A stretch of 64,000 bases of DNA. Source: a virus. The DNA lies in UHGV virus genome UHGV-0038498; one strand, written 5' to 3'. Positions within the stretch are counted from its first letter, which is position 1. Each line of letters begins with the position of its first letter. Both the position numbers and the translations under genes were made by a program. Shown one piece after another: positions 54,404-61,427 of the stretch. The notes under the pieces are model-generated. The model saw only the letters and a program-made list of their open reading frames with translations. It was not told where the DNA came from and did not search any database.

Positions 54404-54430
54404 TCTTGCTTAAGAGCCTTTGTTAATAAT
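54404..54430 (+). promoter_or_regulatory. possible middle promoter upstream of HNH endonuclease gene
   Basis: MotA-box-like TGCTTAA then TAATAAT about 12 nt downstream. Confidence 0.3.
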
Positions 54431-54443
54431 TGGGAATTATATT

Positions 54444-55052
54444 ATGGATACTAAATTAGCTGAAATTTTTGAAGGAAAACATCCAAATTTTAGTACAGGA
54501 AAGCTGAAAGACAAAATAATAAAAGAAAATATTTTTCCATACGAGTGTGCAATTTGTAAAATTTCAAAATGGCAAAATAAGCATATTGTTCTGCAATTAG
54601 ACCATATTGATGGAAATAACAAAAATCATCTTAAATCAAATTTAAGATTATTATGTCCAAATTGCCATTCGCAAACTGATACTTTTGCTGGTAAAAATAT
54701 TAAAAATAATAAAAAGCGTTATAATGTTAGTGATGAAGAAATTTTAAACGCACTATTAAATTCGGCTACTATATCATCTGCAATTACTTCATTAGGTTTA
54801 AGTAAAGGCGGAAACTATAAAAGATTCATTAAAATTGCTAATGATAATAAATTATATCATTTACTGGTAAATATTAATGAAAAGATTTTAACTGATGAAA
54901 TTTATGAAGAATTAGTTAAAATCGATTATTCTAAATTTGGATGGGTTAGTAAAGCTGCTAAAATAATAGGTATAAGCCCACAAAAAGCTAGAAAATGGAT
55001 AGAACGAAAGTGTCCAGAATTGATAGAACAATCTTTTTCACGTAATAAATAA
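54444..55052 (+). CDS. HNH homing endonuclease, free-standing
   Basis: CAIC...HIVLQLDHIDGNNKNHLKSNLRLLCPNCH (HNH/zinc-finger nuclease motif); ORF-track start 54420 is TTG, first ATG is 54444; abuts the tRNA array. Confidence 0.75.
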   Translation: MDTKLAEIFEGKHPNFSTGKLKDKIIKENIFPYECAICKISKWQNKHIVLQLDHIDGNNKNHLKSNLRLLCPNCHSQTDTFAGKNIKNNKKRYNVSDEEILNALLNSATISSAITSLGLSKGGNYKRFIKIANDNKLYHLLVNINEKILTDEIYEELVKIDYSKFGWVSKAAKIIGISPQKARKWIERKCPELIEQSFSRNK

Positions 55053-55058
55053 TATAGC

Positions 55059-55145
55059 GCGAGAATGGTCAAATTGGTAAAGGCACAGCACTTAAAATGC
55101 TGCGGAATGATTTCCTTGTGGGTTCGAGTCCCACTTCTCGCACCA
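55059..55145 (+). tRNA. tRNA-Leu (anticodon UAA), class II long variable arm, CCA encoded
   Basis: Manual fold: acceptor GCGAGAA/TTCTCGC, anticodon loop CTTAAAA, T-arm GGTTCGAGTCC. Confidence 0.8.
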
Positions 55146-55150
55146 AATTT

Positions 55151-55224
<74 letters not shown>

Positions 55225-55234
55225 ATTTAATTTA

Positions 55235-55308
55235 CTCCGTGTAGCTCAGTTTGGTAGAGCGCCTGATTTGGGATCAGGAGGTCCAAGGTTCAAATCCTTG
55301 TATGGAGA
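55235..55308 (+). tRNA. tRNA-Pro (anticodon UGG), no encoded CCA
   Basis: Acceptor CTCCGTG/TATGGAG with G-U pairs, anticodon stem CCTGA/TCAGG with loop TTTGGGA, T-arm GGTTCAAATCC. Confidence 0.75.
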
Positions 55309-55310
55309 CT

Positions 55311-55400
55311 GGAGGCGTGGCAGAGTGGTTTAATGCACCGGTCTTGAAAACCGGCAGTCGCTCCGGCGACTCATAGGTTCAAATCCTATCGCCTCCGCCA
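55311..55400 (+). tRNA. tRNA-Ser (anticodon UGA), class II
   Basis: Acceptor GGAGGCG/CGCCTCC, anticodon loop CTTGAAA, long variable arm, CCA encoded. Confidence 0.8.
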
Positions 55401-55405
55401 GTTTT

Positions 55406-55481
55406 GCTGATTTAGCTCAGTAGGTGGAGCAACTCACTTGTAATGAGAAGGTCGGCGGTTCGATTCCGTCAATCAGCACCA
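55406..55481 (+). tRNA. tRNA-Thr (anticodon UGU)
   Basis: Acceptor GCTGATT/AATCAGC, anticodon loop CTTGTAA, T-arm GGTTCGATTCC. Confidence 0.8.
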
Positions 55482-55482
55482 A

Positions 55483-55557
55483 GGCCCTGTAGCTGGAAGG
55501 TTCAAGCAAGCGACTCATAATCGCCAGATGGTGGTTCAATTCCACCCAGGGCCACCA
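55483..55557 (+). tRNA. tRNA with CAU anticodon (Ile2-type by analogy with T4, or Met)
   Basis: Acceptor GGCCCTG/CAGGGCC, anticodon loop CTCATAA. Confidence 0.7.
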
Positions 55558-55570
55558 AATTAAGAATTAA

Positions 55571-55657
55571 GGGGAGTTATCCCGTAGAGGTAGCGGTGTG
55601 GACTGTAAATCCATTGTCATTGCGACTCGGGTGGTTCGACTCCATCACTCCCCACCA
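55571..55657 (+). tRNA. tRNA-Tyr (anticodon GUA), class II
   Basis: Acceptor GGGGAGT/ACTCCCC, anticodon loop CTGTAAA (as in bacterial tRNA-Tyr), long variable arm, T-arm GGTTCGACTCC; D-arm irregular. Confidence 0.65.
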
Positions 55658-55661
55658 ATTT

Positions 55662-55736
55662 GGATGTGTAGCTCAATGGCAGAGCGATCGCCTGTTAAGC
55701 GATTGGTTATAGGTTCGAATCCTATCACGTCCGCCA
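55662..55736 (+). tRNA. tRNA-Asn (anticodon GUU)
   Basis: Acceptor GGATGTG/CACGTCC, anticodon stem ATCGC/GCGAT with loop CTGTTAA. Confidence 0.75.
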
Positions 55737-55850
55737 AATTTGTGACAACTGTCACATTAATATCTACTTGACGCGATTATAGGGGTTGAACTGATCACTC
55801 TTCTCTTAATTTCGTGTGAAGACATCTTGATTGTTGGAGTAGGTATTAAT

Positions 55851-55926
55851 GTGGCCGTAGTTCAGTTGGTAGAACTCGAGATTGTGATTCTCGTAGTCAT
55901 GGGTTCGACTCCCATCGGTCACCCCA
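55851..55926 (+). tRNA. tRNA-His (anticodon GUG)
   Basis: Acceptor GTGGCCG/CGGTCAC, anticodon stem CGAGA/TCTCG with loop TTGTGAT, discriminator C. Confidence 0.7.
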
Positions 55927-55930
55927 ATTA

Positions 55931-56006
55931 CGGGGCATAGCTCAGAAGGAAGAGCAAGGACCTTCTAAGTCCTAGGTCGTAGGTTCGATCCCTACTGCCT
56001 CGACCA
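55931..56006 (+). tRNA. tRNA-Arg (anticodon UCU)
   Basis: Acceptor CGGGGCA/TGCCTCG, anticodon stem AGGAC/GTCCT with loop CTTCTAA, T-arm GGTTCGATCC. Confidence 0.8.
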
Positions 56007-56022: not shown

Positions 56023-56373
56023 ATGAAAGGTAATGTTTATTTAGTAGTTCATGATTTGACATTCTATTTTAATCACAATGACACTGTTATTTCTGAACGT
56101 GTAATTAATTTGCTTTATCAACACGCGGATTATGTTTATGTCGAAAACGAATATGGCCATTGGCAATTTCTCAAAAATCGTTCATTTGGCTTAGATGGTT
56201 ACGAATACTTTGAACGTAAAGACCTTTTAGATAAAATTCCGTTATCTACACAATATCAAAATCATAAGTCTTTATATAAATGCCGTCCAATTCGAAATGC
56301 TGAATCTGCGTATGAAGTAATTGATTTATGGCGTAAACGCCGTGAACAGATTGATGCTTTAAAAGAATATTAA
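56023..56373 (+). CDS. hypothetical protein (116 aa)
   Basis: ORF with GAGGAAAA RBS immediately after tRNA-Arg. Confidence 0.5.
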   Translation: MKGNVYLVVHDLTFYFNHNDTVISERVINLLYQHADYVYVENEYGHWQFLKNRSFGLDGYEYFERKDLLDKIPLSTQYQNHKSLYKCRPIRNAESAYEVIDLWRKRREQIDALKEY

Positions 56374-56711
56374 GAAACCGGGTCGCTACCGGTAAGTCGT
56401 CGGACTGATGTTCCCTGAGTAAGGAATTGTGTTAATAAATCTTTATGATTTGTTGATGCCCTCTTACATTACAGCAGAAACGGCGCACAGAATTATCGAT
56501 TCGAGGAAATATCTTTGCCGTAAGCCGAGTAGCGTTTTTGACGGAACGTTCGGATATGGTCGAGATATGGCCTTTTAAAAATATTGAGTAGCGTCAACTG
56601 CTTAATAACCGGGTTCGAATCCCGGCGTTTCGTACAAACACTTGCCTTAGCAGGTGGAACCCGACAAGGTTGCCGCAAGGCTTAGCCCCGACCGAAAGGT
56701 TGGGGCTTTTT
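56374..56711 (+). ncRNA. candidate structured non-coding RNA segment with tRNA-like T-arm, ending at an intrinsic terminator
   Basis: 340 nt with no plausible ORF on the plus strand; several stable hairpins; CCGGGTTCGAATCCCGG T-arm followed by acceptor-like CGTTTCG pairing with upstream CGGAACG; terminator hairpin 56685-56706 plus U-run. Confidence 0.3.
56685..56711 (+). terminator. intrinsic terminator closing the non-coding segment
   Basis: GCCCCGACC-GAAA-GGTTGGGGC + TTTTT. Confidence 0.65.
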
Positions 56712-56761: not shown

Positions 56762-57235
56762 ATGAAATCATATGCTCAATTTTTAAATGAAGCGGTGTTA
56801 AATGAAGCATCTAGCACCGAAATTCAAGCTGTCGCAAAAGCAGCCATTGCAGCGGGTAAATATTCCTATAAAGATGCTTCTGACGAATCACGATTCCAAT
56901 TTGCTCGCGACATGAAAGCAGAAGGATTTACGGGAAATGCAGTTAGTATGGCATGGAAAAGTTTAGTTGCTACTGGCGCTGCTTTTGCAAAGGCTTCGGG
57001 TAAACCTGCTCCTAAAGCAGATCCTAAAGCTGCACAAGAAAAAAATATCGTTAAAGGAATTATCGCTAAATATGAAGCTATCCTTAAAGAGCTTTTAGTA
57101 ATCAAAACCGAAGGCCAAAAGTTAGCCCGTGCTTATAGTTTCAAAGATAATCCACATGTTCACTCTCTTGAGTATGTTGAAGACATCCAAAAAATTATTA
57201 AAGACCGCATTTGGTCTGCTAAACAAATCAAATAA
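56762..57235 (+). CDS. internal-protein-like packaged protein (157 aa), Ala/Lys-rich
   Basis: N-terminus MKSYAQFLNE-A / VLNE-A resembles T4 internal-protein leader and prohead-protease (L/I)xE sites; late promoter 56714-56721; flanked by terminators. Confidence 0.6.
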   Translation: MKSYAQFLNEAVLNEASSTEIQAVAKAAIAAGKYSYKDASDESRFQFARDMKAEGFTGNAVSMAWKSLVATGAAFAKASGKPAPKADPKAAQEKNIVKGIIAKYEAILKELLVIKTEGQKLARAYSFKDNPHVHSLEYVEDIQKIIKDRIWSAKQIK

Positions 57236-57244
57236 CATTCTTAA

Positions 57245-57270
57245 CCCCAGCCGAAAGGTTGGGGATTTTT
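57245..57270 (+). terminator. intrinsic terminator after the 157-aa internal-protein-like gene
   Basis: CCCCAGCC-GAAA-GGTTGGGG + ATTTTT; near-identical stem to the 56685 terminator. Confidence 0.65.
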
Positions 57271-57390: not shown

Positions 57391-57436
57391 TTTTCACAAA
57401 ACTGTTTACATCCCTGTTCTTCCATGGTACTATACA
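57391..57436 (+). promoter_or_regulatory. early-type promoter cassette, copy 3
   Basis: TTTTCACAAAACTGTTTACA; GTTTAC 57404-57409, TACTAT 57428-57433. Confidence 0.55.
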
Positions 57437-57740: not shown

Positions 57741-57808
57741 ATGTGTACAAACACCAAGGATGGTGTTATTATAGACTTATCAAAACAAATACAGAAACGG
57801 AGAAATAA

Positions 57809-57985
57809 ATGACTACTTTAATTATTTGGTTCGACGAGAATGAAGAAACATACTGCGTGAATATTGGTGAAAGCCCAATGCCAGAGTTTGAATCTTCAGA
57901 TAAAAATTCGGTTGTATCCTGGGCTGAAGGTTATAAAGCAGCAAAAGGCGATGTCGAAATAGTTTATAAACTCTTTGGAGTATAA
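57809..57985 (+). CDS. hypothetical small protein (58 aa)
   Basis: Manually translated MTTLIIWFDENEETYCVNIG...; GGAG RBS; below ORF-track cut-off. Confidence 0.4.
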   Translation: MTTLIIWFDENEETYCVNIGESPMPEFESSDKNSVVSWAEGYKAAKGDVEIVYKLFGV

Positions 57986-58028: not shown

Positions 58029-58622
58029 ATGAACACACTGAAGAAAATTGTTGAGTTTATTCGCACTAAACTTGGTTCTGCTATGGCTAAAAATCTATCT
58101 GTTGAAGAACAGTATACTGCTGCAGCAGCAAAACTACTTGATAAAATTAAAGATCTAAAAACTGCTTCTGTTAAATCTATTAATGAAGAAAAACGTATTC
58201 GTGAACTTATTGTCGAAAAGAATCGACAAGCCGAATCAAAAGAGCGTGAAATTCGTAAACTTCTTTCTGAAGGTCAAGATGTAACAATGCATGCTAAACT
58301 CGGTTTACTATATCGTCGAACAGCTGAGCAGTTGACTACTAAAGCTGACGGTTATGCTGAAATGCGAATTGAAATCGCCAAGAAAGTAGTTGAATTAGAT
58401 GATGCTCGCCAAGAACTTGCAGTTAAATTGGAATATATCCGTGAAACTCGTGCGGCAAATGCCCTTGGAATTAGTACTGCAGATGATGTAGTTGAAATTG
58501 CAGCGCTGACTAAGGTTGATATTGAAGATACCCTTGCTCGAGTTGAAACCTTTAACGGTAATATTTCCGGGGTTGAAACTACCTCTGCCGATGTTCAGGA
58601 ATACATTAATTCTCTGAAATAA
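58029..58622 (+). CDS. coiled-coil protein, possibly PspA/IM30-like (197 aa)
   Basis: Uniformly helical, charged heptad pattern; N-terminal amphipathic segment and ...[12 protein letters not shown]... region reminiscent of PspA; no search run. Confidence 0.45.
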
Positions 58623-58628
58623 TGATAA

Positions 58629-58646
58629 GGGGCTTCGGCCCCTATT
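58629..58646 (+). terminator. hairpin after the PspA-like gene
   Basis: GGGGC-TTCG-GCCCC, weak U-run. Confidence 0.4.
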
Positions 58647-58663
58647 ACTTGGAGTAAATAGGA

Positions 58664-59269
58664 ATGAAAATGCAAAGTGATTTCAATTCAATGTTTGAAG
58701 AGTTCCAAAGACAGGTTGATGTTCCAGACCAATTACTAAATGCTCTTAAACGTATGGCAGAAGGACGTAATTATTATTGGGGGTCTTCATATGAAACTGA
58801 TGAAAGTCTTTCTGGATTTTATAAAGGTAAAAAGTCTTTAATACGTCCTGGAATACTCATTAAAAGTATTGAATCAATTCATTCATTGACTTGTGATTTT
58901 GATGTTGAATTTACTGATTTCATTTCTCCTGAATGGACAGTTTGTTATTTAAATGACGATTATGATTATCTTGGCGTTTATAGTTTAAGTGACGCATGGT
59001 TTAAACGTAATTTACAAAAGTCAAATTTATTTTATATTGATACTACGGTAAAATTTCAGGGAAAGAAATATTTCTTTACTCTTATAGTTGATTCTGAAAC
59101 AAAGCATGAAAATAAACGTATTCTTAGTAAAAAGAATATCTTAACTATTGTTGATGATCTTTTTGATAAATTCGTGGAAAATCCTAATTTTGAAAGCGAT
59201 TTATTATTAGAAAAATTTGTTAAGGAATGTAGAGAATATGTCAAAGCCATCAATGTATCTTCCAAGTAA
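58664..59269 (+). CDS. hypothetical protein (201 aa)
   Basis: ORF; C-terminus overlaps next gene start. Confidence 0.5.
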   Translation: MKMQSDFNSMFEEFQRQVDVPDQLLNALKRMAEGRNYYWGSSYETDESLSGFYKGKKSLIRPGILIKSIESIHSLTCDFDVEFTDFISPEWTVCYLNDDYDYLGVYSLSDAWFKRNLQKSNLFYIDTTVKFQGKKYFFTLIVDSETKHENKRILSKKNILTIVDDLFDKFVENPNFESDLLLEKFVKECREYVKAINVSSK

Positions 59270-59630
59270 ACCCTTAAAGTATGAATTAAAGCGCCAGCTA
59301 ATTCCTACTGACGTATTAATAGGTCCTGTGACAGCTATATCATTTGTAATTCTACTGATTATTGGAGGTGTTTTAGATGTTATGACTGATATTGATTCTG
59401 GCGAAATACTTGTGTTAATGCTAATTCTTCCATTAATAGTTCCATTTTTATTGGTACCCGTAAATTGGGTAGGATACTGGTATCAAGGAAGGCATTATCG
59501 TAAACGTGTACGTGATTGGAAAGCTCAGTGTAAAAAGATTAAAAAGGAACACCAGCTTAAACTTGCTGCGTATGAATTTGATGAAATTATGAAATTTGTT
59601 AAGGAATCACGATGCAAAAGCCAAAACTAA
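59238..59630 (+). CDS. small membrane protein, two predicted TM helices (paralogue 1)
   Basis: Start set at MSKPSMYLP (AAGGAA RBS); hydrophobic segments VTAISFVILLIIGGVL and ILVLMLILPLIVPFLLV. Confidence 0.5.
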   Translation: MSKPSMYLPSKPLKYELKRQLIPTDVLIGPVTAISFVILLIIGGVLDVMTDIDSGEILVLMLILPLIVPFLLVPVNWVGYWYQGRHYRKRVRDWKAQCKKIKKEHQLKLAAYEFDEIMKFVKESRCKSQN

Positions 59631-59974
59631 ATAAAGTCAAATATTCGTTTCCCGAGGCACTATTAATTCTTGCTGTGGCGTTGGCTGCAGCTCTTGCGGG
59701 TAGTCTTATTGGATTGCTAATTGACTGTTTTATTTTAAACATCGACGGCACAGTAATTATAACAGAGGTTTGGAGTGAACTTCGTTATACTATAGCGATT
59801 TCATTATTTTCATTCTTTGGTACCATGTTATATTTTCATTATGATAATTTTAAAATAAATTGGCAAAGAAAAAAGGATTACAAAATACAATTAAAGGAAT
59901 ATAATAACTACATGTCTTATATTGAAAAAGAATCAATGGAAGAGTTTGTGAGTGATTGTAGGAAAATTAAATGA
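59612..59974 (+). CDS. small membrane protein, two predicted TM helices (paralogue 2)
   Basis: Hydrophobic segments ALLILAVALAAALAGSLIGLLI and IAISLFSFFGTMLYF; basic C-terminal tail. Confidence 0.5.
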   Translation: MQKPKLNKVKYSFPEALLILAVALAAALAGSLIGLLIDCFILNIDGTVIITEVWSELRYTIAISLFSFFGTMLYFHYDNFKINWQRKKDYKIQLKEYNNYMSYIEKESMEEFVSDCRKIK

Positions 59975-60459
59975 TTTTAAAAACTCGCTGGTATGATTTA
60001 GATGATGGGGACGATGGCATTTCAGTTGATAGAGTTGACTGGAGTGGCTGTTCTGAAGATACAAAGAAACGATTAATTAGGGAGTTTAGAATGGGATATC
60101 AAGCAGCTAAGCCATCTACTGTAACAGATGATAAATTCGTGTGTATTCGAAACGGTCGCGCTAAATTAACGAACGCTGATTGGTTCACAGATAAGAAGGT
60201 TATTCTGTGGTATATTATTAGTTTTCCTGTGACATCATTTGTATTTTGCTTCTTTGGAGAAAGTCCAGTAGGCAGAACGGAAGATTGGATTCTTTTAATT
60301 ATACTTGTTAATATTTTTACAGCAGCAGTACTATCAGGAATATGGTGCGTGTTCGTTGAAATGCCATGGCGGTTACGTAGGCAGCAAAAGATTTTTGATG
60401 AAAAGAAATATACTCAAAATTTAAATAACTTTATTACTGAATGCAGGAAATTAAAATGA
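59971..60459 (+). CDS. membrane protein with N-terminal soluble domain and two TM helices (paralogue 3)
   Basis: Hydrophobic segments VILWYIISFPVTSFVFCFF and WILLIILVNIFTAAVLSGIWCVF; C-terminal ...ITECRKLK. Confidence 0.5.
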   Translation: MILKTRWYDLDDGDDGISVDRVDWSGCSEDTKKRLIREFRMGYQAAKPSTVTDDKFVCIRNGRAKLTNADWFTDKKVILWYIISFPVTSFVFCFFGESPVGRTEDWILLIILVNIFTAAVLSGIWCVFVEMPWRLRRQQKIFDEKKYTQNLNNFITECRKLK

Positions 60460-60896
60460 AAACACTATCAGCTGGTATTATCTTTATGACAGAAGATAAA
60501 GATTTATTTATGGGACGAGTTACTGGTTCTCGTAAGCCTGGAATGATGGCACATCGCTGGGATATTCCAAAGGGGCGTGTAGAAAATTCTGATTTAAGCG
60601 CATTAGATGCAGCACGAAGAGAATGCTCAGAAGAGACTGGTTTTAACAATTATAATCCAGACCTTCTAGAAGACCTAGGTGTATTTAAATATTCTAGTAA
60701 TAAAGACTTACAGTTATTTTATTATACGATTCCAGTAGAGCATGAGATGTTTAGAAATTGCCATTGCGAGTCTTATTTTGAAAATAAAGATGGAGTTATG
60801 ATTCCAGAGATGGATGCTTTTGCCCTTATTCCTCGTACTCAGTGGCAATATGTGATGGGTCCTTCACTTTACCGAATAATGAACAGCCTCTTTTAA
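60456..60896 (+). CDS. nudE: Nudix hydrolase NudE (e.1)
   Basis: Nudix box around RRECSEETGF; start set at MKTLSAGIIF with AGGAA RBS (ORF-track start 60441 has no RBS). Confidence 0.8.
   Translation: MKTLSAGIIFMTEDKDLFMGRVTGSRKPGMMAHRWDIPKGRVENSDLSALDAARRECSEETGFNNYNPDLLEDLGVFKYSSNKDLQLFYYTIPVEHEMFRNCHCESYFENKDGVMIPEMDAFALIPRTQWQYVMGPSLYRIMNSLF

Positions 60897-61427
<531 letters not shown>

Follow-up and report, generated by a model that had tools for sequence, protein, structure and literature searches.

The window analysed here comprises 64,000 nucleotides (nt) of the virus genome UHGV-0038498 and derives from a Tequatrovirus, its segment 57400-61500 being 96% identical to Escherichia phage REP2 and matched in 700 phage records. 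Between positions 58029 and 60459 it carries five open reading frames (ORFs), all on the plus strand, which according to the T4 annotation and phmmer comparison are one-to-one counterparts of the genes e.6, e.5, e.4, e.3 and e.2 of phage T4. T4 is the best-studied virulent phage, yet its annotation still lists e.2-e.6 as hypothetical. The subject of this work is the product of e.6, which profile comparisons assign to the PspA/IM30(Vipp1) family, together with the four genes that follow it and whose products share a C-terminal tail motif. The five genes (lengths in amino acids, aa; TM, transmembrane) are arranged as follows:

58029-58622, plus strand: e.6, 197 aa, orthologue of T4 e.6, matching phrog_1203 ("unknown function") at E 1.1e-87
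58664-59269, plus strand: e.5, 201 aa, soluble; it opens the series of motif-bearing genes after e.6 and is the most constant of them
59238-59630, plus strand: e.4, 130 aa, identified from the T4 annotation, phrog_2604, two TM helices
59612-59974, plus strand: e.3, 120 aa, phrog_2330, two TM helices
59971-60459, plus strand: e.2, 162 aa, phrog_2203 ("membrane protein"), an N-terminal domain followed by two TM helices and a basic tail

For e.4 the ATG start annotated in T4 and REP2 was adopted, the mechanical ORF start being a TTG at 59217. Scanning the window proteins against Pfam and NCBIfam yielded a significant family only for the downstream gene nudE (NUDIX), and the labels that PHROGs offers for the genes of the locus are limited to "unknown function" or "membrane protein".

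The five ORFs are genuine genes and not chance ORFs, since the region recurs in so many phage records and the corresponding proteins are detected in T4. There, time-resolved proteomics recovered all five proteins, RNA is early for all five genes, and the proteins are classified as early (e.5, e.4), middle (e.6, e.2) or late (e.3) (PMC9697503, supplements). In addition, supplement 7 of a T4 transposon screen lists all five genes as non-essential, with 43 of 43 insertion sites hit in e.6 (bioRxiv 10.1101/2025.11.20.689424), and the entire block e.2-e.8 can be deleted (PMC9825161).

Family membership and predicted fold of e.6

Homologues of e.6 are exclusively phage proteins of about 200 aa, and occur in phages of Aeromonas, Serratia, Klebsiella and others; e.6 itself is conserved at 47-99% identity across genera. 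Two profiles were built, one from T4-like e.6 proteins only (A1) and one from a broad family alignment (A2). An exhaustive search of 1.84 billion proteins with A1 returned 45 representatives, all of about 200 aa or fragments of such proteins, and no canonical PspA at E<=1e-3, so that the family is closed at the HMMER level. Among the full-length matches were four proteins of a distant branch from Ackermannviridae (Kuttervirus, Taipeivirus, Miltonvirus), namely P0065 (E 1.5e-21), P0066 (2.9e-20), P0067 (6.3e-20) and P0068 (1.2e-19). When each of the 39 members of A2 was scanned against Pfam, five matched PF04012 (PspA_IM30), two of them above its gathering score of 33.9 bits: P0066 reached 39.0 bits (E 8.9e-10) and P0065 35.1 bits (E 1.4e-8), both aligning residues 6-146 to profile positions 2-143, while P0067 and P0068 matched at E of about 1e-4. 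Reversed versions of P0065-P0068, which keep composition and helical periodicity, gave no PspA match at E<=10, and the PF04012 match is therefore no coiled-coil artefact. Since the window protein aligns with P0066 over residues 4-196 in BLASTP (1e-13, 25% identity), a single secure step links e.6 to the PspA family.

Comparisons with proteins of known structure point in the same direction. Against all Protein Data Bank (PDB) sequences, the best match of A2 was Vipp1 sll0617, aligned over residues 1-146 against 1-147 at E 7.8e-5, and Vipp1 or PspA made up eight of its ten top matches. With A1 Vipp1 appeared only at E 1.4-3.4, which is non-significant taken alone; a direct hhalign comparison of A1 with Vipp1 1-147 gave E 2e-4 and 47% probability, with columns 1-73 colinear. 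P0066 matched the NCBIfam family LiaH weakly but colinearly (E 0.005), and a phmmer search of P0066 against PDB sequences found nothing. The identity of e.6 to PspA and Vipp1 is about 15-20%. Taken as sequence evidence, these matches identify e.6 as a phage-borne protein, short and divergent, of the PspA/IM30(Vipp1) family, which is the bacterial branch of the ESCRT-III superfamily.

The AlphaFold2 (AF2) model of e.6 has a mean predicted local distance difference test score (pLDDT) of 74.7, with values of 81-94 over residues 31-130 and 75 over residues 131-140. Helices are assigned by DSSP to residues 3-22, 25-80 and 86-145, followed by the short segments 156-161, 165-175 and 186-196. In a Foldseek search of the PDB the top eight matches of this model were Vipp1 (E 3.7e-4 to 7e-3), archaeal CdvB came next, and PspA (7abk) stood at rank 26. 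Three predicted elements bear on the comparison:

58035..58094, plus strand: predicted N-terminal amphipathic helix of e.6 (residues 3-22), aligned to alpha0 of Vipp1/PspA
58101..58463, plus strand: long helical hairpin (residues 25-145), consisting of alpha1 (25-80), a tip loop (81-85) and alpha2/3 (86-145)
58584..58616, plus strand: C-terminal helix in the AF2 model (residues 186-196), with the pattern x-Y-[LI]-x-S-L-K

The first helix, modelled at a pLDDT of about 49, is colinear with Vipp1 residues 1-22 and has a hydrophobic moment of 0.45, as against 0.23 +/- 0.12 for shuffled sequences (about the 95th percentile). The hairpin aligns to that of Vipp1 and contains the most conserved stretches of the family, residues 88-98 and KLEYIRET (133-140). 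A long alpha1-alpha2/3 hairpin is the hallmark of the Vipp1/PspA/ESCRT-III superfamily (PMC8281802), and the predicted structure of e.6 displays it within an alpha0 plus alpha1-alpha2/3 architecture. Polymerisation in the superfamily relies on side-by-side packing of hairpins and on a swap of alpha5, which mediates polymer contacts in Vipp1 and ESCRT-III by docking on the hairpin tip of a neighbour (Interface 1, domain swap; PMC8281802). Helix 186-196 of e.6, in which Y192, S195, L196 and K197 are near-invariant, is a candidate equivalent of alpha5.

The sequence-only reading of this stretch had by eye called the 197-aa protein possibly PspA-like. That call stands by way of the relatives, the family profile and Foldseek, whereas the window protein on its own yields no match. 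Its description as wholly helical is approximately right, 164 of the 197 residues lying in the six helices. The same reading had named the lack of a significant PspA/ESCRT-III-like match, together with alignment to T4 ORFs of established, unrelated function, as an argument against a PspA-like gene; the proteins do align to T4 e.2-e.6, but these genes are without established function.

In comparison with PspA of Escherichia coli and Vipp1/IM30 of cyanobacteria and plastids (PF04012), e.6 shares a predicted N-terminal helix, a hairpin of about 55 + 60 residues and C-terminal helices, with residues 1-146 colinear in sequence. On the other hand, it is shorter (197 aa against 222-267), its C-terminal third (146-197) is unaligned, its T4-like subfamily falls below the Pfam threshold, and its genes belong to virulent phages, which express it at an early stage of infection. 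With the eukaryotic and archaeal ESCRT-III proteins CHMP1B, IST1 and CdvB the likeness exists at the superfamily level only, with no detectable sequence similarity, and unlike in those systems there is no Vps4-like ATPase and no MIM/MIT partner near e.6.

The assignment has a precedent, as PspA homology was reported from a pdb70 comparison for Gp_125 of Kuttervirus SeF3a, a member of phrog_1203, for which a role against abortive infection was suggested without experiments (PMC9409062, 2022). The window e.6 falls into the same PHROG, and the Ackermannviridae members tested here, P0066 and P0065, pass PF04012; the T4-like branch is more divergent from PspA than the Ackermannviridae branch. The earlier report is confined to one Ackermannviridae phage; neither T4 e.6 nor the genes downstream and their C-terminal motif come up in it. 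Literature searches on T4 e.6, including its UniProt and RefSeq identifiers, returned nothing on e.6 itself; those on phage-encoded PspA returned only PMC9409062 and a passing mention of "pspA-like" genes in jumbo gut phages, and phage homologues are not a topic of a recent review covering the ESCRT-III systems of bacteria and archaea. The PspA call for e.6 is right and defensible, and partly anticipated in the literature for the same PHROG. As a separate observation, the PspA_IM30-positive gene of Ackermannviridae lies between replication genes, a helicase and a ligase (loci L043 4647-5222, L044 4651-5381 and L049 3179-3610).

Membrane proteins and the shared C-terminal tail

That e.4, e.3 and e.2 each contain two TM segments, as the sequence-only reading had stated, is borne out by Kyte-Doolittle peaks at residues 26-42 and 57-73 of e.4 (TM helices about 26-48 and 57-75), 17-33 and 59-75 of e.3 (the second weaker, at 1.5; TM about 15-40 and 58-75) and 77-93 and 107-123 of e.2 (TM about 77-95 and 106-127). 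Because all three have acidic loops and basic termini, an N-in/C-in orientation with cytoplasmic C-terminal tails is predicted, and the N-terminal domain of e.2, 75 residues long, would likewise be cytoplasmic. The predicted location of the tails is the compartment in which e.6 resides.

The same reading had also described the three as paralogous, which applies at best to e.4 and e.3. Pairwise BLASTP found nothing beyond the last 14 residues, and phmmer clustering of 476 ORFs from 40 related loci left the three in separate clusters. By hhalign, e.4 and e.3 align over 69 columns covering TM2 and the tail (89% probability, E 2.4e-6) and are thus probably paralogous, while the alignments to e.2 are confined to the C-terminal end (13 columns for e.3, 10 for e.4); judging from these profiles, e.2 shares with the other two only the two-TM layout and the tail motif. 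The e.2 gene is intact at 162 aa in the window, in REP2 and in several IMG/VR relatives. In the T4 reference (L001 2973-3461) it is split into an annotated 102-aa ORF and a 51-aa C-terminal fragment in another frame, and therefore looks like a frameshifted pseudogene, while the close relative L004 has no e.2 and its e.3 abuts nudE.

What unites the genes downstream of e.6 is a short C-terminal helix of the form phi-E-x-F-[IV]-x-x-C-[RK], defined here as lying no more than 15 residues from the C-terminus of a protein encoded downstream of an e.6 homologue. In the window it stands near the ends of three of the proteins, and a variant of it near the end of the fourth:

59207..59233, plus strand: LEKFVKECR, motif of e.5
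59586..59612, plus strand: IMKFVKESR, variant motif of e.4 with Ser in place of Cys
59936..59962, plus strand: MEEFVSDCR, motif of e.3; the CRK codons that follow also hold the AGGA ribosome-binding site of e.2
60421..60447, plus strand: LNNFITECR, motif of e.2

The motif is specific to this position. Among six-frame ORFs of the whole window, the pattern [FWY][IVLM]xxC[RKI] has three occurrences, all of them at the C-terminal ends of the e.5, e.3 and e.2 products. Among the 802 ORFs of the complete T4 genome, the motif lies within 15 residues of the C-terminus only in e.5, e.3, the e.2 fragment and tk, the last of which is likely a chance occurrence. Across 37 IMG/VR loci, each built around an e.6 homologue with 5 kb of flank on either side, 102 motif-bearing ORFs lie downstream of e.6 as against 2 upstream. 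Immediately after e.6 there follows, in all loci but one, where the gene is truncated, an ORF for a motif protein of 93-290 aa; in all but one case the motif ORF directly 3' of e.6 has no predicted TM segment, and the motif is kept even where the ORF is no longer recognisable as e.5.

The 84 distinct tails follow the pattern phi(-3)-[E/N/D]-x-F-[I/V]-x-x-C-[R/K] at 0-15 residues before the stop codon, with positions -3, 0, +1 and +4 on one helical face. The e.5 family, whose extremes are less than 20% identical, has only four invariant residues, and F185, C189 and R190 are among them. Synonymous sites of the motif codons vary freely (TTT or TTC, TGT or TGC, any of six Arg codons), and the constraint therefore acts on the protein, not on the DNA or on a downstream ribosome-binding site; an explanation of the repeated junction at the DNA level was rejected on this codon evidence. 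The conserved tail motif by which these downstream genes are tied to e.6 seems to be a novel finding. The PspA-like gene of Ackermannviridae is followed by a gene for either a "membrane protein" with one TM segment (phrog_11433) or a soluble protein of small size.

Two further observations concern the products of this region. Relatives of e.5 carry the precomputed Pfam accession PF26876.1, so that a Pfam family for e.5 apparently exists. Moreover, a second C-terminal signature, W-[VFL]-S-S-S-x-x-C or W-x-x-S-S-C, is found downstream of e.6 in many T4-like phages, in runs of small soluble proteins (61-151 aa) within the same hyperplastic region (L009 6862-8112, L010 6522-7778, L018 6710-7545, L022 6567-7616, L028 6553-7576, L050 3796-4322 and others). 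The largest phmmer cluster of these proteins comprises 72 members from 28 loci; both members that were tested fall into phrog_899 (unknown function), and the family is absent from the window.

A proposed membrane-acting system and its alternatives

The family membership of e.6 and the shared motif suggest a phage-made system that acts on the host inner membrane. In the reading that we consider reasonably probable, e.6 is an early PspA-family membrane coat or polymer protein, and the motif-bearing products of e.5, e.4, e.3 and e.2 are its partners. The direct ground for this reading consists of the family membership and predicted fold of e.6, the fact that the genes are expressed early and are dispensable in T4, the membrane proteins' topology, and a motif that is specific across the genome and syntenic with e.6; from these we infer membrane binding and polymerisation of e.6, its contact with the motif and a physiological purpose. 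Following the analogy with Vipp1 and PspA, e.6 would be made early in infection, attach to the inner membrane from the cytoplasmic side by means of its predicted amphipathic helix at the N-terminus, and self-assemble through the alpha1-alpha2/3 hairpin and the C-terminal helix into a coat or polymer. Such an assembly might stabilise, repair or reshape the membrane and thereby preserve the proton-motive force that the phage needs. The partners would comprise e.5 as a soluble adaptor and e.4, e.3 and e.2 as two-TM anchors, with the amphipathic tail serving as a common docking peptide.

In the LiaH-LiaI pair of Bacillus subtilis and in the PspA-PspB/PspC system of E. coli, small membrane proteins recruit or regulate a PspA-like protein, and the putative partners of e.6 would play a role parallel to that of PspB/C and LiaI without homology to them. 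As in these pairs, e.6 stands beside small inner-membrane proteins with cytoplasmic tails, here three predicted two-TM proteins. Unlike in these pairs, the series of candidates opens with a soluble protein, e.5, a single tail motif is common to all of them, and the interaction is hypothetical.

A more far-reaching version, which we regard as speculative and unlikely, credits T4-type phages with a self-contained ESCRT-III-like remodelling system in which the tails of changeable partners mimic the alpha5-like tail of e.6 and dock at the polymer-contact site of the hairpin. Since alpha5 of Vipp1 and ESCRT-III docks on the hairpin tip of a neighbour, the partner tails could be alpha5 mimics, and the partners might then anchor, cap or steer the e.6 polymer at particular membrane sites. 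An hhalign comparison of the e.6 tail x-Y-[LI]-x-S-L-K with F-[IV]-x-x-C-R is weak, with Y and F in register (P 0.005, as against 0.26 for a reversed control).

PspA, Vipp1 and ESCRT-III are the cell's general tools of membrane repair and reshaping. If e.6 proves PspA-like in action, the T4-like and Ackermannviridae phages, groups that comprise hundreds of therapeutic-phage genomes, import their own membrane-maintenance machinery. This would bear on how proton-motive force is kept up while the envelope is punctured and loaded with phage membrane proteins, on phage resistance to immune systems that kill by depolarisation, and on the recruitment of ESCRT-III-type polymers. The nine-residue tail motif offers a testable handle on partner recruitment at a T4 locus that is dispensable and genetically easy.

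Several findings weigh against the proposed coat-and-partner system. A Pfam search with the product of 58029-58622, which the sequence-only reading had put forward as a check, found no match to PspA_IM30 at E<=1, nor at E<=10, and since the window protein is without such a match, its family membership runs through one transitive step and profiles. The e.6 model is poor at residues 1-20 and 141-180, and its N-terminal helix is only moderately amphipathic (0.45, against 0.61 in Vipp1). Scans of e.5, e.4, e.3, e.2 and the upstream ORFs against Pfam and NCBIfam found no homologue of PspB, PspC, PspF or LiaI, in keeping with the earlier concession that homology to PspB and PspC was not demonstrable; lacking matches to PspF/PspB/PspC or LiaI/LiaG/LiaFSR, the locus is therefore no Psp or Lia operon, though it might work in a similar way. 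Under the conditions covered here, the transposon data show no phenotype for any of the five genes (bioRxiv 10.1101/2025.11.20.689424). The downstream gene of Ackermannviridae has only a looser pattern, I-[IV]-x-x-A-[RKH], and its hhalign comparison with the e.5 profile is non-significant (E 0.19, tail region). Finally, the tie between e.6 and the motif is one of synteny only, and the cluster lies in a hyperplastic region, in which neighbours may be co-inherited without joint function.

Other explanations differ in how much of the proposal they would replace. One refines the purpose and leaves the mechanism as it is: e.6 and its partners, of the same family as above, would serve counter-defence by neutralising effectors that permeabilise or depolarise the inner membrane, comparable to T4 rIIA/rIIB against RexAB. 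We hold this possible but tentative. The suggestion already made for phrog_1203 in a Kuttervirus (PMC9409062) favours it, as do the early, accessory and on laboratory hosts dispensable nature of the genes and their position in a rapidly evolving cluster, in which related phages vary widely in the genes they carry, as is typical of host-interaction genes. According to annotation, rIIA/rIIB ("membrane integrity protector") are thought to protect membrane function from the depolarising RexAB defence; e.6, being likewise early and non-essential, may be a functional analogue, but the e.6-e.2 proteins are unrelated to rIIA/rIIB, lie at another locus and are linked to no defence system. Against it, e.6 and e.5 are not significantly depleted in the HIDEN-SEQ rows covered here (adjusted p = 1.0), and the conservation of e.6 (47-99% across genera) is far above that of typical anti-defence genes. 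The tail, in turn, could be a by-product of gene origin or expression, arising by duplication and recombination at the junctions or from the constraint of the next gene's ribosome-binding site. The AGGA or AAGGAA sites of e.3, e.2 and one candidate nudE start do lie within K-E or C-R-K codons of the upstream tail, and the variable gene content at the junctions (e.2 split in T4, absent in L004) would fit recombination between repeated ends. This account is nevertheless unlikely: beyond the free synonymous codons, many tails contain no AGGA (FINYCR, FVDQCR), the motif persists in e.5 homologues of less than 20% identity in which almost nothing else is conserved, the single helical face is a pattern at the protein level, and a distance of 0-15 residues from the stop means that the motif is not tied to the next start codon.

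The membrane proteins might instead be the effectors, in superinfection exclusion, ion or solute handling or lysis control, with e.6 protecting from their toxicity or being unrelated to them. Three small N-in/C-in two-TM proteins directly upstream of nudE and the endolysin gene would suit such a role, and the T4 exclusion genes imm and sp are by annotation also small early membrane or periplasmic proteins. We nonetheless consider it improbable, given that RNA is early for all three genes and protein early or middle for e.4 and e.2, only that of e.3 being late; that the T4 lysis and lysis-inhibition genes t, rI, rIII and pseT.2/3 lie at other loci; that Pfam and PHROGs scans of the window proteins found no match to holin, Imm or Sp families; that e.2 is split in T4 itself; and that the set of membrane genes changes between phages while e.6 and the e.5-like gene stay constant. 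A holin or lysis-timing role, the latter entertained by the sequence-only reading, was set aside on expression timing, the RNA of all five genes and the proteins of e.6, e.5, e.4 and e.2 appearing before the late phase and all genes being dispensable under standard conditions. It is still less probable that e.6 is a regulatory mimic that binds host PspF (or PspB/C) and switches the phage-shock response off or on. The hairpin region of E. coli PspA is the part that inhibits PspF, and the region of e.6 aligned to PspA/Vipp1 is exactly alpha0 to alpha3; at about 15-20% identity, however, a conserved PspF-binding surface is unlikely, the early shut-off of host transcription by T4 leaves little to regulate, and the family is present in phages of Aeromonas, Serratia, Klebsiella and other hosts. 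Least credible of all is the notion that e.6 is a generic coiled coil whose likeness to PspA is an artefact of composition or heptad periodicity, for two relatives exceed the PF04012 threshold while reversed sequences find nothing, the alignments run colinearly from residue 1 onwards and extend over alpha0, which is not a coiled coil, and Vipp1/PspA come first both in the PDB sequence search and in Foldseek.

Genomic surroundings of the five genes

The genes from e.5 onwards overlap one another, by 32 nt between e.5 and e.4, 19 nt between e.4 and e.3, 4 nt (ATGA) between e.3 and e.2 and 19 nt between e.2 and nudE. The view that all were translationally coupled thus agrees with the overlaps from e.5 to nudE but not with the junction of e.6 and e.5, where a gap of 41 nt contains a hairpin. 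The position upstream of nudE and the endolysin gene was described correctly. The flanking and intergenic features are:

57405..57433, plus strand: promoter-like site upstream of e.8 (GTTTAC -35, TG-extended -10), preceded by an A/T-rich tract; from a consensus scan only
57744..57772, plus strand: second promoter-like site, upstream of e.7 and e.6 (TGTACA, 17 nt, TATTAT, with TG); from a consensus scan
58628..58645, plus strand: intercistronic hairpin GGGGC-UUCG-GCCCC, minimum free energy -13.1 kcal/mol, z -2.0
60441-60896, plus strand: nudE, Nudix hydrolase (NUDIX E 1.3e-13), counterpart of T4 nudE, overlapping the end of e.2
60933-61427: lysozyme gene e, downstream of nudE and followed by denV

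The 14-mer of the hairpin recurs at this position in T4, in REP2 and in four Tequatrovirus loci of IMG/VR, and T4 has it at two further intergenic sites, between genes 43 and regA and beside hoc. This fits the stable C(UUCG)G hairpins that have long been recognised between cistrons of T4, and the element may be an element of RNA stability or processing, or else a weak terminator. The two promoter-like sites are consensus matches only, yet they are compatible with the early transcription seen in T4, and the first is probably one source of an early transcript through e.8, e.7 and e.6 to nudE. As to nudE itself, it is treated as downstream context of the putative module.

Upstream of e.6 lie e.7, e.8, two ORFs without a T4 counterpart at the same place, and ten tRNA genes. 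The 58-aa "e.7" of the window (57809-57985, phrog_5461) has no phmmer match in the T4 stretch; T4 e.7 is annotated at 336 nt (111 aa), so that this slot is filled here by a different gene. The two ORFs between the tRNA genes and e.8 are found at 56023-56373 (116 aa) and 56762-57235 (157 aa; phrog_2280), and strong terminator-like hairpins follow them at 56684-56707 and 57245-57264, respectively. At their position T4 has the small RNAs rnaC and rnaD, while an Rfam scan of this part of the window finds nothing but tRNAs. The tRNA genes occupy 55059-56006 and comprise Leu, Gly, Pro, Ser, Thr, a CAT-anticodon Met/Ile, Tyr, Asn, His and Arg; the T4 reference stretch has eight annotated tRNA genes, which do not include Tyr, Asn and His. 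Further upstream, a 210-aa ORF at 54420-55052 contains the HNH-like pattern C-x2-C ... H-x-D-G-N ... C-P-N-C-H and looks like a homing endonuclease; in T4, a GIY-YIG endonuclease gene, segB, is located within the tRNA cluster.

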